Positions 12,303-19,431 of a stretch of 55,206 nt of DNA are shown here, piece after piece. The DNA comes from Pseudomonadota bacterium. Lineage in GTDB: Bacteria; Pseudomonadota; Alphaproteobacteria; ATCC43930; CGMCC-115725. A program made the position numbers and the translations under genes. The stretch is taken from positions 6,045 to 61,250 of the forward strand of contig JAKAOO010000001.1 in the NCBI GenBank assembly GCA_021812165.1, in the 5' to 3' direction. Under the pieces are notes generated by a model. The model saw only the letters and a program-made list of their open reading frames with translations. It was not told where the DNA came from and made no database searches. Position 1 is the first letter of the stretch. The number at the start of each line of letters is the position of its first letter.

Positions 12303-13037
12303 ATGGATGTGAAAAGCGCCAGGCGGACGGTCGATTTGTTCGAAGCCTTCGCGCGCTCGCAAGGGCCGCTGTCGCTCTCCGAACTGGCGCGGGCGCTCGC
12401 GATGCCGCATTCGAGCTGCTTCAACCTGGTGCGGGCGCTCGAGGGCCGGGGCTATCTTTATGCCGTGGGCGAGCGGCGGCGGCTTTATCCGACGCGACGG
12501 CTTTATCACGTGGCGAGCGCCATCGTTGCGGCGGAGCCGGTGGTGGCGCGGCTCGAACCGGCGCTCGCCCGGCTCAGGGACGCGACGCGCGAGACGGTCC
12601 TCCTCGGCAAGCGCCAAGGCGACCGCGCCCTCTATCTCGCCGTCCTCGAAGGGCCGCAGACCGTCCGCTACACGGCCGAGGTCGGCGCGCTCAAGCCGTT
12701 GCATTCGAGCGCCATCGGCAAGGCGCTGCTTTCGGCCCTCGGGCCTTCCGAGCGAGCCGAGACGGTGGCGCGCCTGCCGCTCGAAGCGATGACCGCGGCG
12801 ACCATCACCGATCCCGCTCTTCTTCTCGCCGAACTCGAAAGGGCGGCCGAACGCGGGTACGCCGAGACGCGGGGCGAGAACATCGCCGACGTCTCGGCCG
12901 TCGCGAGACCGGTTCGGATCGACGGCTCGCTCTACGCGGTCGCCGTTGCGGGGCCGATGCACCGCATGGCCGCGGACGTACCCTCGCACACGGCCGCGCT
13001 CGAAAAAGCCTGCGGGTCTCTTGGAGACGCGCGATGA
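12303..13037 (+). CDS. IclR family transcriptional regulator
   Basis: MDVKSARRTVDLFEAFARSQGPLSLSELARALAMPHSSCFNLVRALEGRGYLY is a winged HTH, followed by an IclR effector domain. Start ATG at 12303. The stop overlaps the next gene (ATGA). Confidence 0.85.
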   Translation: MDVKSARRTVDLFEAFARSQGPLSLSELARALAMPHSSCFNLVRALEGRGYLYAVGERRRLYPTRRLYHVASAIVAAEPVVARLEPALARLRDATRETVLLGKRQGDRALYLAVLEGPQTVRYTAEVGALKPLHSSAIGKALLSALGPSERAETVARLPLEAMTAATITDPALLLAELERAAERGYAETRGENIADVSAVARPVRIDGSLYAVAVAGPMHRMAADVPSHTAALEKACGSLGDAR

Positions 13038-13813
13038 GCGGTCTCGTTTCCGCCGCCCTGGAGAAGGGCGTGCTCTGGCTCACCTTGCGGCGGCCGCAGA
13101 AGCGGAACGCGCTGTCGCGCGCGCTCCTCGCAGAGTTGGCGGCGAGCTTCATGCGCTGGAGGGAACGGCAAGACCTCTGCGTCGCCCTGCTGACGGGCGA
13201 AGGGGAAAAGGCGTTTGCTTCGGGCGGCGACCTCGACGAGCTGAGCCTTCTCAGGGATGAGGCCGAGACGCTCCAATTCGCCAAAGAGACCCGCGGCGCG
13301 CTCGACACCATCCGCCGCTTTCCGGTTCCCGTCGTCGCGGGTTTGAACGGCGACGCTTTGGGCGGCGGGGCGGAGCTGGCGATGGCGTGCGACCTGCGGA
13401 TTGCGGCGCCGCACGCGCGGATCGGCTTTTTGCAGGGCCGGCTCAATATCGCGACCGCCTGGGGAGGCGGCACCGATCTTCTGCGGCTTTTGGGCTCGGC
13501 TCGCGCGCTTCTTCTGCTCGGGACGGCGGAAGCGCTCGACGCCAAACGCGCTCTCGAATTGGGTCTCGTCGATGGGGTGGCGCCCGAAGGCGAACCGTTC
13601 CGCGATTTTGTCGCCGCTTTTGCCTCCCGCCTTGCCGCCCGCAGGCCCCAAGTCATGCGCGCCTTCAAGGCGCTCGCGATCGCCCACCGCTTCGGGGCGG
13701 CGAACGCCGAGATGGCGGAAATCGAGAGTCGCGCCTTTACGGGCACCTGGGTTCATAGCGACCACTGGGCTGCGGCGGAGGCGATGTTTTCCCGTACCGG
13801 ACCGCAGAGGTAG
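13034..13813 (+). CDS. enoyl-CoA hydratase/isomerase family protein
   Basis: 259 aa. LLTGEGEKAFASGGDL, and NGDALGGGAELAMACDLRIA. Confidence 0.85.
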   Translation: MSGLVSAALEKGVLWLTLRRPQKRNALSRALLAELAASFMRWRERQDLCVALLTGEGEKAFASGGDLDELSLLRDEAETLQFAKETRGALDTIRRFPVPVVAGLNGDALGGGAELAMACDLRIAAPHARIGFLQGRLNIATAWGGGTDLLRLLGSARALLLLGTAEALDAKRALELGLVDGVAPEGEPFRDFVAAFASRLAARRPQVMRAFKALAIAHRFGAANAEMAEIESRAFTGTWVHSDHWAAAEAMFSRTGPQR

Positions 13814-13823
13814 GGAGGGATCG

Positions 13824-17061: not shown

Positions 17062-17951
17062 CGCCCGATGAGCGGCGACGCCTCGCCCGCGTGCTCTCGA
17101 GGCTGGCCGATGCGAGCGTTTCCGAAGTGCTGCGTTTGCCGCAATCGGGCGACGGGCATTGCCGGCGCATCGGCGTCACGGGTCCGCCGGGCGCCGGCAA
17201 AAGCACCCTCATATCGAGGCTCGCCCGCCGCCGTCTCACGGGCGAGGGCGACCTCGCCATCCTCGTCATCGATCCGACGAGCCCCATTTCCGGCGGCGCC
17301 ATCCTCGGCGACCGCATCCGCATGGAAGAGCTCGAAAACGAGGAACGGATCTACATCCGCTCGCTTGCAAGCCGCGAGAGCCGCGACGGGCTCGCGGACA
17401 ATCTCCCCGACATCCTCGCCGCGCTCCAATCCTTCGGTTTCTCGGAAGTGCTCATCGAAACGGTGGGCGCGGGCCAGGTCGCCCACGCCATCCGCGCTCT
17501 CGTCGATACGCTCCTCCTGGTGCTGCATCCGGGTGCCGGAGACCAGATCCAGGCGATGAAGAGCGGCATTCTCGAATTGGCCGACATCTATGTGATCGCC
17601 AAGGCGGACCAGCCCGGCGCCAAGGAGCTCGTTGCGGAATTGCGGTCGGTCCGCAAAGAGCGGAGCGTCGCCGGCGCGGGATGGAGGCCGCCGATCGTGC
17701 TTTCTTCCCATGGCGAGGACGAGAGTATGCAGAAGCTCGCTGCCGAGATCGACCGTCACCAGGCGTGGACGACGGTGAGCGAGCGGTGGGAGGACGCGCG
17801 CGTCCTGTGGCGGGCGCAGCATGTTGAAAGCCTTCTCAGCCGCCGCGTCGGCGAGGTCTTGCGGGCGCTTCCGCGAGACGCATTGAAGCAGCCGATCGAC
17901 GAACTCTACCGCGCCGTGTTGCGCGAGCTCGCAGATCCGGGCGCGATGTGA
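17058..17951 (+). CDS. meaB: MeaB/ArgK-type G-protein chaperone for B12 mutases
   Basis: P-loop GVTGPPGAGKST, GGAILGDRIRM, ETVGAGQ and the AKAD NKxD-like motif. The GTG start overlaps the CoA-transferase stop (GTGA). Confidence 0.85.
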   Translation: MTPDERRRLARVLSRLADASVSEVLRLPQSGDGHCRRIGVTGPPGAGKSTLISRLARRRLTGEGDLAILVIDPTSPISGGAILGDRIRMEELENEERIYIRSLASRESRDGLADNLPDILAALQSFGFSEVLIETVGAGQVAHAIRALVDTLLLVLHPGAGDQIQAMKSGILELADIYVIAKADQPGAKELVAELRSVRKERSVAGAGWRPPIVLSSHGEDESMQKLAAEIDRHQAWTTVSERWEDARVLWRAQHVESLLSRRVGEVLRALPRDALKQPIDELYRAVLRELADPGAM

Positions 17952-17994
17952 AGACGAAGCCCTGCGGACGGGCGCTTGGCCCGCCGCCGGCCGG

Positions 17995-19431
17995 TTGACC
18001 CGCAAAGAGAGACTGAGAGTGCCGATTACGCTCGCCGTCGATTTCGGAAGTACCTATACCAAGGTCGTTGCAATCGACTGCGACGACGAGGTTTTGATCG
18101 GGGTGGCGCAGTCGCCGACGACCGTCGGCGACGGCGTCATGGTCGGATTGGATCGCGCTCTTCTGCGTCTTGAGGAGAGAAGCGGCGTCAAGCGCGGCGA
18201 CATTGCCGTGCGCGTTGCCTCCTCGAGCGCCGCCGGCGGATTGCGCATGGTGGCGATCGGGCTCGTTCCCGATCTGACGGCGGAGGCGGCGCGGCGGGCG
18301 GCGCTCGGCGCCGGCGCCAAGGTCCTGCGCGCATTCGCTTACGAGCTGTCGCGGCGCGATCTCGAGGAGATCGCGCGCATTCAACCCGATATCATCCTGC
18401 TTTCCGGCGGGACCGACGGCGGCGAGCGCAAAACCATCCTCAAGAACGCGGCGGCGCTGGCCTCGGCCCGGCCGAAAGCGCCGATCGTCGTCGCGGGAAA
18501 CCGCGCGGCCGAAGACGAAGTCGAGGCGATCCTCTGCGGCGCCGGCCTCGAATACACGATCGTCGAGAACGTGTTGCCCGAGCTCGACCGCCTCAACGTC
18601 GAGCCGGCCCGCGCCGCCATTCGCGCGATTTTTATGAATCGCATCACCCACGCCAAAGGGCTTGATCGGGCCGAAGCTTTCGTCGGCCGGATCGCGATGC
18701 CGACGCCGATGGCGGTGCTCGAAGGCGCAAGGCTGCTTTCGACCGGCGGCGGCGCTTGCGGAATGGGGGATCTCGTCGTCGTCGATGTCGGCGGCGCCAC
18801 CACCGACGTGCACTCGATCGGCAGCGGCGCGCCGTCAACGCCCGGGCTCGTCCCTCGCGGCTTGCCGGAGCCGTTCGCCAAGCGCACCGTCGAAGGCGAT
18901 CTCGGCATCCGCGTCAATGCGCCGACGATCGTCGAGACGGCGGGCGCCGAGCGCGTCATGGGCGCTCTCGAGGGCCGGCTCCAAAGAGACGCCCTTCTTG
19001 CGCGCGTGCGGCAACTGGCGGCAGAAGTCGACCGGGTGCCGCGCGACGACCTCGATCACGATCTCGACGCCGCGCTCGCGACAATCGCGATCGATGCGGC
19101 ACTCGAGCGCCATGCCGGTCGGGTCAGCACCGTCTATACGCCAATGGGCGCGGTGCAGCTTCTCCACGGCAAGGATTTGTCGGCGGCTGCGAGCGTGATC
19201 GGCACCGGCGGGGTGTTCGCATACGGCCGCAACCCGCGAAGGATCCTCGAAGCCGCCTGTTACGACCCGCATTCGCCGACGTCTTTGCGCCCGCGTGACC
19301 CGAGGCTCCTCGTTGACCGGCGCTACATTTTCTTTGCCGTCGGCCTGCTGGCGCCGGTGGCGCCGCGCGCGGCGGCCAATGTAATGCGGTGCCATCTTGC
19401 GGAAGCGGAAGATAGGAGCGGGGTCGTCTAG
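17995..19431 (+). CDS. GlmL/MutL-like protein (glutamate mutase component L family, ASKHA fold)
   Basis: ITLAVDFGSTYTKVVAID, SSSAAGGLRMVAIGL, ILLSGGTDGG and VVDVGGATTDVHS are actin-like ATPase phosphate motifs in the GlmL arrangement. The start is uncertain (TTG 17995 or GTG 18019). Confidence 0.7.
   Translation: MTRKERLRVPITLAVDFGSTYTKVVAIDCDDEVLIGVAQSPTTVGDGVMVGLDRALLRLEERSGVKRGDIAVRVASSSAAGGLRMVAIGLVPDLTAEAARRAALGAGAKVLRAFAYELSRRDLEEIARIQPDIILLSGGTDGGERKTILKNAAALASARPKAPIVVAGNRAAEDEVEAILCGAGLEYTIVENVLPELDRLNVEPARAAIRAIFMNRITHAKGLDRAEAFVGRIAMPTPMAVLEGARLLSTGGGACGMGDLVVVDVGGATTDVHSIGSGAPSTPGLVPRGLPEPFAKRTVEGDLGIRVNAPTIVETAGAERVMGALEGRLQRDALLARVRQLAAEVDRVPRDDLDHDLDAALATIAIDAALERHAGRVSTVYTPMGAVQLLHGKDLSAAASVIGTGGVFAYGRNPRRILEAACYDPHSPTSLRPRDPRLLVDRRYIFFAVGLLAPVAPRAAANVMRCHLAEAEDRSGVV

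Follow-up and report, generated by a model that had tools for sequence, protein, structure and literature searches.

A conserved B12-dependent acyl-CoA mutase cassette of Proteobacteria with an altered substrate pocket, and the addition of a GlmL-family gene in one alphaproteobacterial lineage

Results

Positions 6,045 to 61,250 of contig JAKAOO010000001.1 (assembly GCA_021812165.1, Alphaproteobacteria), a stretch of 55,206 nucleotides that we call the window, carry a cassette built around a split adenosylcobalamin (AdoCbl)-dependent acyl-CoA mutase. The cassette consists of seven genes, all on the + strand, at 12303-19431 of the window (ORF listing, Pfam and NCBIfam). The first two encode an IclR-family transcriptional regulator (12303-13037; Pfam HTH_IclR and IclR_C) and a crotonase-fold enzyme (13034-13813; Pfam ECH_1, 138.7 bits). 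They are followed by the large, substrate-binding subunit of the mutase (13824-15455; 543 aa; PF01642, 653.6 bits) and by its B12-binding small subunit, which has a DxHxxG motif (15452-15865; PF02310, 76.1 bits; TIGR00640). The last three encode a family III CoA-transferase (15862-17061; PF02515, 374.4 bits), a MeaB-like GTPase or G-protein chaperone (17058-17951; PF03308, 213 bits) and a GlmL/MutL-family protein (17995-19431; PF13941, 551.7 bits). These gene families and coordinates agree with an initial annotation of the window made from the DNA letters, and Pfam, NCBIfam and the sequence confirm them.

The junctions were read directly, and the four 4-nt overlaps that had been claimed are present: ATGA at 13034, where the iclR stop overlaps the crotonase start, and at 15452, and GTGA at 15862 and 17058. 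No overlap occurs at the other two junctions, where 10 nt separate the crotonase gene from the mutase gene and 43 nt separate MeaB from GlmL. A GGGAGGG ribosome site precedes the large-subunit gene. Start/stop overlaps are frequent in bacterial operons, so those seen here are no statistical oddity; they are consistent with a single transcript and translational coupling.

The mutase pair has what defines the AdoCbl acyl-CoA mutase superfamily, a PF01642 barrel and a PF02310 domain with DxHxxG, and residues D22, H24 and G27 of the small subunit are invariant across 23 aligned sequences. The large subunit scores 563 bits against NF006944, the methylmalonyl-CoA mutase (MCM) equivalog model, under the cut-off of 876. 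The same genome (95.9% complete) holds a second PF01642 gene on another contig, a fused canonical MCM that scores 1234.9 bits against that model. The best-scoring solved chains for the large subunit are the 2-hydroxyisobutyryl-CoA mutase (HCM) 4R3U at 467 bits, human MCM at 453, Mycobacterium tuberculosis MCM at 414, Propionibacterium shermanii MCM at 386 and IcmF at 239.6.

Alignment with the solved chains 1REQ, 2XIJ, 6OXC and 4R3U separates the active-site residues into two groups. Tyr89, Gln197, Arg207, His244, Arg326 and Glu370 of MCM have identical counterparts in the window protein. Five residues common to all four solved MCM and HCM chains are replaced, in each case by a smaller or a hydrophobic one: Tyr243Ala, His328Gly, Gln330Val, His364Phe and Asn366Ala. 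We take Tyr89 and Arg207 to be the clamp on the substrate carboxylate, and the other numbered positions to line the active site. Because the equivalents of Tyr89, Gln197, Arg207, His244 and Glu370 are kept along with DxHxxG in the small subunit, the pair is predicted to function as a radical mutase whose substrate is a CoA ester with a free carboxylate. The full window signature is Y89 Q197 R207 A243 H244 R326 G328 V330 Q361 S362 F364 A366 E370. Of the 83 related loci, 82 have YQRAHRGVQSF(A/C)E at these thirteen positions, and the one other locus has Asp at 89. Position 366 is Ala in 37 of the 83 loci and Cys in 46. The MCM of this genome, the ScpA protein of E. coli and a split mutase from Streptomyces agree on another reading of these positions, YQRYHRHQQSHNE.

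The 83 related loci comprise three annotated plasmids and 80 genome contigs (80 kept of 190 relatives, all with at least 69% identity), the latter spanning Alpha-, Beta- and Gammaproteobacteria. In a protein search the relatives bear the generic name 'methylmalonyl-CoA mutase', and the best 120 have 72-100% identity. A search of 1.84 billion cluster representatives returned 3440 proteins at E ≤1e-30, with the nearest other clusters at most 53% identical. One full-length representative at 53% identity (P0123) carries the same pocket signature. Among the best 150 representatives (P0123-P0271), dozens keep the Tyr/Gln/Arg clamp, each with different residues at 243, 328, 330, 364 and 366. It therefore seems that many specificities in the acyl-CoA mutase family are still to be assigned and that its functional diversity is largely unmapped.

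Reference sequences for ethylmalonyl-CoA mutase (ECM) were located through a search for Ccr (TIGR01751) in 61 genomes of the class. In five Ccr-positive genomes a second PF01642 gene adjoins ccr in divergent orientation and was taken to encode ECM. These presumed ECMs read YQRYHRGQRAQPE at the thirteen positions. Like the window protein they have Gly328 and a rewritten 361-366 segment, but they keep Tyr243 and Gln330. The window protein is 38-40% identical to them and 41-45% identical to MCMs. The genome that holds the cassette has no Ccr by the TIGR01751 search and no ECM among its PF01642 genes.

A FastTree phylogeny of 87 rows included the window protein together with 13 loci out of the 83 in the clade, seven MCMs, five ECMs, one split mutase from Streptomyces and, among the representatives that reach 490 aa, the first 60. 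In this tree the clade is monophyletic (14/14, support 100), with P0123 as its sister (99). MCM, ECM and clusters of the Phe/Gln type lie in the other half (support 95). Tight clustering of the large subunit inside a characterized clade, which would have refuted the initial annotation, is not seen in this tree; the clade is separate from both MCM and ccr-linked ECM.

None of the assigned types that we tried fits the mutase. An assignment as MCM (EC 5.4.99.2) is rejected: the carboxylate clamp is there, but the score is below the equivalog cut-off and the residues at 243, 328, 330, 364 and 366 are not those of MCM. For ECM, the gene is split, the genome has no Ccr, the signature differs at 243, 330 and 361-366, and the clade is separate. 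The isobutyryl-CoA mutase (ICM) and HCM assignments fail at positions 89 and 207, which are Tyr and Arg and not a non-polar residue and Gln. For HCM the residues were read from the alignment; for ICM we assume a non-polar residue at 89 and Gln at 207. Two cluster representatives, P0125 of the Phe/Gln type and P0174 of the Ile/Gln type, were not labelled ICM or HCM, as they score only 563 and 521 bits to HCM 4R3U. The initial annotation had placed the mutase outside the assigned types, and this holds for the MCM, ECM, HCM and ICM signatures. The cassette is real, and its mutase varies a known enzyme kind.

The neighborhood of the mutase is conserved to differing degrees, counted in each case over the loci with room on the contig. 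In 76 of 80 loci the gene immediately before the mutase encodes the crotonase, and the small subunit follows the large subunit in 79 of 79. The conserved core is the crotonase and mutase pair. A CoA-transferase follows the small subunit in 55 of 74 loci; among the other 19, MeaB is directly behind the small subunit in 11. MeaB is present in 54 of 67 loci. Of 71 loci, 23 have an upstream IclR gene in the orientation of the cassette and 10 have one that is divergent; if any position from -3 to +8 kb is counted, the figure is 31 of 50. GlmL is present in none of 61 other loci. This conserved context, as the initial annotation held of the locus, matches no function assigned so far.

Beyond the cassette itself, organic-acid transporters (TTT, TRAP of the DctPQM type, TAXI, Liv ABC and MFS) flank it in 9 of 18 Pfam-scanned loci and in two of the three plasmid loci. 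A cobalamin adenosyltransferase gene lies behind MeaB in two loci, and MmgE/PrpD-family genes are beside the cassette in L014 and L116. Bradyrhizobium manausense has two cassette copies on one contig, about 30 kb apart (L009 and L021). One copy is accompanied by a CoA-transferase and a TRAP transporter as well as by a second CoA-transferase/crotonase pair; the other is without the CoA-transferase and stands behind a Liv-type ABC system.

The crotonase-fold enzyme has the first catalytic Glu of its family, Glu114, as do all 79 of 79 orthologs. The position of the second, 134, is Gln in 75 of the 79 and His in four, and never Glu; the window protein has Gln134. A C-terminal W-x-H-x-D-H-W motif is nearly invariant, with W239, H244 and W245 invariant or nearly so. 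Among solved chains its nearest relatives are ordinary hydratases, in which the second position is Glu. Enoyl-CoA hydratase (EC 4.2.1.17) calls for two catalytic Glu, and a standard hydratase role is unlikely because the second is never present. Hydration or isomerization of an enoyl-CoA, which the initial annotation gave as the activity of crotonases in general, is for the same reason not its likeliest role. We also considered a methylmalonyl-CoA decarboxylase of the ScpB/YgfG type. Identity to ScpB is 28.6% over 192 residues, and Gly and Thr are aligned with His66 and Tyr140, which we take to be the catalytic pair of ScpB, so this assignment was not adopted either.

The CoA-transferase covers profile positions 1-365 of 366 of PF02515, which makes it a full-length family III member, and it reaches no NCBIfam equivalog cut-off. 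Its best matches there are the succinate-glutarate enzyme at 258.7 bits (cut-off 750) and succinyl-CoA:mesaconate CoA-transferase at 229 bits (cut-off 700). Its solved relatives are YfdE, SUGCT and formyl-CoA transferase, and all of these relatives are named for dicarboxylates. They point to a probable dicarboxylate substrate, in line with the carboxylate clamp kept in the mutase. The carboxylate-type transporters of four families (TTT, TRAP, TAXI and Liv ABC) and the MFS genes that flank the cassette in other loci also bear on the substrate class, for which a substituted dicarboxylyl-CoA is reasonably supported. MeaB scores 214.5 bits against TIGR00750, under the cut-off of 240.75, and every NCBIfam equivalog of the IclR type is far under its cut-off for the regulator.

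The GlmL-family gene at the end of the cassette is the feature specific to this window. Its product scores 581.6 bits against the NF040745 equivalog, above the cut-off of 475, and it is the sole PF13941 gene of the genome. GlmL would be expected to be encoded together with GlmS and GlmE, and a search of this genome, 95.9% complete, gave no PF06368 (GlmE) match. When a glmS or glmE remnant was sought behind glmL in the window with the proteins of L116, only the mutase small subunit matched. Across 301 genomes of the class a GlmL relative occurs in five; in three of the other four it is beside GlmE, and in two of those three a B12-binding or MutL gene was also confirmed to be adjacent. The window GlmL is 52-56% identical to copies in glmS-glmL-glmE operons. 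In 6 of 6 metagenome loci whose GlmL is 76-82% identical to it, the next gene is GlmS-like.

The junction of meaB and glmL is bridged by independent contigs from two studies and is therefore no assembly error. These contigs are record 1 of run X1, with 0 differences, record 12 of run X2 and record 20 of run X3; X1 may be the source sample. Variants in other runs include at least 5 synonymous and at least 5 non-synonymous changes in glmL and at least 6 and at least 4, respectively, in meaB, too small a number for a test of selection. In L028 and L029 an importer homologous to that of the window is directly behind MeaB; glmL and the 592-nt repeat spacer that follows it in the window therefore look like an insertion. 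GlmL is a lineage-specific addition, because none of the 61 loci has it and its closest relatives stand in glmL-glmS-glmE operons. Of the seven-gene unit proposed at first, the seven co-directional genes stand, and GlmL is no member of the conserved unit.

A metagenome contig, L116, carries both kinds of gene set. At 5716-11303 it has a GntR-MmgE/PrpD-GlmL-GlmS-GlmE operon, divergent from its copy of the mutase cassette. The MmgE/PrpD-family gene of this operon occupies the place expected for methylaspartase, and further on there is a second set of CoA-transferase, acyl-CoA dehydrogenase and MmgE/PrpD genes. The operon may belong to a different glutamate-mutase-like pathway.

The spacer between glmL and the importer (19432-20022) is repeat-rich, as judged from contig depth, inverted repeats and same-genus matches, and a high-copy repeat lies at 19422-19877. 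In run X1 (Logan) contig depth in the spacer is 382-981 against about 9-10 on either side, and contigs break in it; over 19422-19877 the depth is 100-981 against about 9. It has inverted repeats with hairpin arms, such as the 27-nt arms at 19482-19552. Dozens of short copies with 75-100% identity occur in all five of five same-genus genomes. The repeat looks like a genus-wide element similar to repetitive extragenic palindromes or miniature inverted-repeat transposable elements, and it may have mediated the insertion of glmL.

A Liv-type ABC system lies downstream of the cassette, as the initial annotation had noted. It consists of a substrate-binding protein (SBP; 20023-21261), a permease (21507-22367), a fused permease-ATPase (22277-24130) and an ATPase (24127-24849), all on the + strand by Pfam. 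The SBP has only weak matches in the PDB (at most 56 bits) to binders of the Leu/Ile/Val type, which give no clue to a ligand. The fused frame joins a LivM-type permease to a LivG-type ATPase in 617 aa (BPD_transp_2, ABC_tran and BCA_ABC_TP_C), and this fusion recurs in L014, L028, L029 and the same-genus genome G314.

At E ≤1e-180 the mutase was found in none of 24 genomes of the same genus (74-99% complete). When 12303-19421 was compared with five same-genus genomes, the matches listed were of paralog level, at most 66% over at most 690 nt in the mutase gene, with fragments of roughly 100 nt in that of the CoA-transferase. Downstream of the importer, the gene for a DAO-family oxidoreductase (25113-26372; Pfam) and an alanine dehydrogenase/PNT-family gene (Pfam) are conserved in four of those five genomes. 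Seven plasmid records have a mutase match at 60-80% identity. In G314 an ortholog of the importer (68-78% aa identity) stands without a mutase; it is flanked by genes for a pyridoxal phosphate enzyme, a family I CoA-transferase, a luciferase-like monooxygenase, a ROK kinase and DinB. The cassette is an acquired island beside a possibly native importer, because it is absent from same-genus genomes, the importer ortholog in G314 comes without a mutase, and a repeat spacer lies between the two.

The link of the importer to the cassette is uncertain. Against the idea of self-contained import, which the initial annotation had put forward, the importer stands behind the repeat spacer and its ortholog in G314 comes without a mutase. 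In its favor, importers adjoin the cassette elsewhere: homologs with 56-63% aa identity are directly behind MeaB in L028 and L029, and an SBP (62.6%) adjoins the cassette in L116.

Searches for regulatory elements in the window gave little. No part of the window matched an Rfam family at gathering thresholds, and hence no cobalamin riboswitch was found. A scan for promoters and terminators gave no excess over shuffled sequence (promoter-like 1 vs 1.2, terminator-like 17 vs 13.9). An AT-rich patch at 12268-12305, noticed by eye and not returned by the consensus scan, has TTGACA, 17 nt and TGAAAC and stops 7 nt short of the iclR ATG. A promoter at this place would give a nearly leaderless iclR mRNA. 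Farther along the window, an Mla-type ABC system (MlaE with a STAS domain, an ATPase, MlaD and an auxiliary lipoprotein) and a gene for an intracellular polyhydroxybutyrate depolymerase, at 28801-32397 and 34887-36122, seem unrelated to the cassette.

Discussion

The conserved cassette described here pairs a split acyl-CoA mutase that has its own pocket signature with a crotonase-fold enzyme that has one catalytic Glu. We favor, with somewhat better than even confidence, a model in which this is a horizontally acquired catabolic cassette that rearranges a substituted CoA ester of the succinyl/malonyl type, the product then probably being decarboxylated. A substituted dicarboxylic acid would be taken up and activated by the CoA-transferase, with succinyl-CoA or the product acyl-CoA as donor. 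The mutase would convert the substituted succinyl-CoA to a substituted malonyl-CoA, whose substituent would be larger than the methyl group handled by ECM or would sit on a 2,2-disubstituted carbon. The one-Glu crotonase would then strip the malonyl carboxylate and leave an ordinary acyl-CoA for β-oxidation. MeaB would load and guard the cofactor, and IclR would sense the acid or its CoA ester. GlmL would have come in this lineage from an operon of the glutamate-mutase type, as a passenger or as an extra cofactor-repair ATPase.

By analogy with known operons, a decarboxylase acting on the mutase product is probably the simplest fit to the invariant pairing of crotonase and mutase, and it may use other catalytic residues than ScpB does. 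The exact substrate and the crotonase reaction are what we infer from this arrangement.

Several points weigh against this model. The crotonase is only 28.6% identical to E. coli ScpB and has Gly and Thr in place of His66 and Tyr140; its decarboxylase role is proposed by analogy. The direction of the mutase in vivo, from succinyl to malonyl ester, is an assumption of the pathway. The structural roles given to the numbered MCM residues are carried over from the MCM structural literature. The CoA-transferase is missing from 19 of 74 loci. The flanks vary widely between genomes (18 loci, Pfam), and the context therefore points to no particular substrate. The tree has Shimodaira-Hasegawa-like supports only and was built without HCM, ICM, PCM or IaaG reference sequences. 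A literature search, with subscription journals and supplements outside it, found no characterization of, or experiment on, any member of the clade.

One alternative starts from what the window protein shares with ECM. His328Gly and the altered 361-366 segment are common to it and ccr-linked ECM, the carboxylate clamp is retained, and the genome itself is without Ccr and ECM. The mutase could then be a catabolic ethylmalonyl-CoA/methylsuccinyl-CoA mutase, a non-orthologous equivalent of ECM where the ethylmalonyl-CoA pathway is lacking: methylsuccinate or ethylmalonate would be activated with CoA and interconverted, and the crotonase would decarboxylate ethylmalonyl-CoA to butyryl-CoA. A crotonase-fold ethylmalonyl-CoA decarboxylase, ECHDC1, is described in mammals (PMC8473548). 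We think this version unlikely. The enlarging changes Tyr243Ala and Gln330Val are not seen in ECM, the identity to ECM is 38-40%, the clade is in the other half of the tree, and a search of the literature on methylsuccinate catabolism found no such pathway. A simpler proposal is that the enzyme is a second, split MCM isozyme for propionate or succinate metabolism with neutral pocket differences. Databases call the relatives 'methylmalonyl-CoA mutase', Tyr89, Arg207 and His244 are retained, and the gene make-up is like that of the E. coli scp operon. Yet the score is under the MCM equivalog cut-off, a canonical MCM is encoded in the same genome, and the clade is separate in the tree. The five changed positions are identical in the MCM of this genome, E. 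coli ScpA, the human, M. tuberculosis and P. shermanii MCMs and HCM, whereas 82 of 83 loci over three proteobacterial classes have the changes fixed. We regard this reading as very improbable.

The order of the two core reactions could also be the reverse, with the crotonase acting before the mutase. An unsaturated dicarboxylate of the mesaconate, itaconate or glutaconate type would be activated with CoA and hydrated or isomerized, and the resulting hydroxy- or saturated dicarboxylyl-CoA would be rearranged. One-Glu crotonases can be isomerases, and succinyl-CoA:mesaconate CoA-transferase is the second-best NCBIfam match of the transferase, at 229 bits. MmgE/PrpD-family genes adjoin the cassette in L014 and L116, and in L116 a glutamate-mutase-like operon is the divergent neighbor. 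That match is far under its cut-off of 700, however, and the MmgE/PrpD neighbors occur in two loci only. The second hydratase Glu is absent from 79 of 79 orthologs, and the changes in the mutase pocket are towards hydrophobic residues, not hydroxyl-binding ones. There is little probability left for a crotonase-first pathway, about what we would allow a methylsuccinate mutase.

The model of a rearrangement followed by decarboxylation has partial counterparts among known systems. The E. coli scpA-argK-scpB-scpC operon, which converts succinate to propionate, also has a mutase, a MeaB-type GTPase, a crotonase-fold enzyme and a CoA-transferase in one operon, judging from its annotation. ScpA is, however, a fused canonical MCM, and the window crotonase has the low identity to ScpB given above. 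The window CoA-transferase belongs to family III, and ScpC to another family. MCM in general (1REQ, 2XIJ, 6OXC and E. coli ScpA) is like the window enzyme in its PF01642 barrel and PF02310 domain, in the six aligned residues and in its MeaB partner. It is unlike it in that the window enzyme is split over two genes, has five pocket changes and forms its own clade. ECM acts on a substituted succinyl/malonyl pair. Ecm/MeaA resembles the window enzyme in the kept clamp, Gly328 and the rewritten 361-366 segment, but it is fused, is encoded next to ccr and keeps Tyr243 and Gln330. HcmAB (4R3U) has split subunits and gives the highest score of the solved chains; at 89 and 207, where the window enzyme has Tyr and Arg, HCM has Ile and Gln, and it keeps Tyr243, His328, Gln330, His364 and Asn366.

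A precedent for the activation of a bulky succinate by a CoA-transferase and its rearrangement by a B12 mutase comes from the indoleacetate pathway of Aromatoleum aromaticum, as outlined in PMC8360864. There IaaL, a phenylsuccinyl-CoA transferase, and IaaGH, a benzylmalonyl-CoA mutase, produce a substituted malonyl-CoA. The likeness to IaaG is drawn from its description in that source. The pathway differs from the one proposed here in that the malonyl ester is handled by a decarboxylating acyl-CoA dehydrogenase, IaaF, and not by a crotonase, and in that there are many further iaa genes.

GlmL/MutL of glutamate (methylaspartate) mutase operons matches the window protein over the full length of PF13941 and, on the window side, with a score above the GlmL equivalog cut-off. 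The window copy differs in that it follows meaB in an acyl-CoA mutase cassette, in a genome without GlmE. It is tempting to combine the strongest form of each proposal: that the clade makes a rearrangement new to acyl-CoA mutases, of a bulky alkyl- or aryl-succinyl-CoA or a 2,2-disubstituted malonyl-CoA, together with a new crotonase-type decarboxylase, and that in this lineage a GlmL-type ATPase has been recruited out of a glutamate-mutase operon and serves an acyl-CoA mutase alongside MeaB. That all of this is true at once we regard as improbable.

To our knowledge, the acyl-CoA mutase specificities assigned so far are few: MCM, ICM/IcmF, ECM, HCM/RCM, PCM and the phenylsuccinyl/benzylmalonyl enzyme. 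The clade described here is widespread and mobile, found in Alpha-, Beta- and Gammaproteobacteria and on plasmids, and has a fixed pocket signature. Once its substrate is named, B12 biochemistry would gain a reaction, and the systematic annotation of these proteins as 'methylmalonyl-CoA mutase' would be corrected, along with, at this locus, that of GlmL as 'methylaspartate mutase accessory protein'. The addition of GlmL is a natural experiment on whether GlmL acts on B12-binding subunits generally. If its recruitment is true, it would connect the GlmL family with acyl-CoA mutases for the first time and offer a way to learn the role of GlmL.

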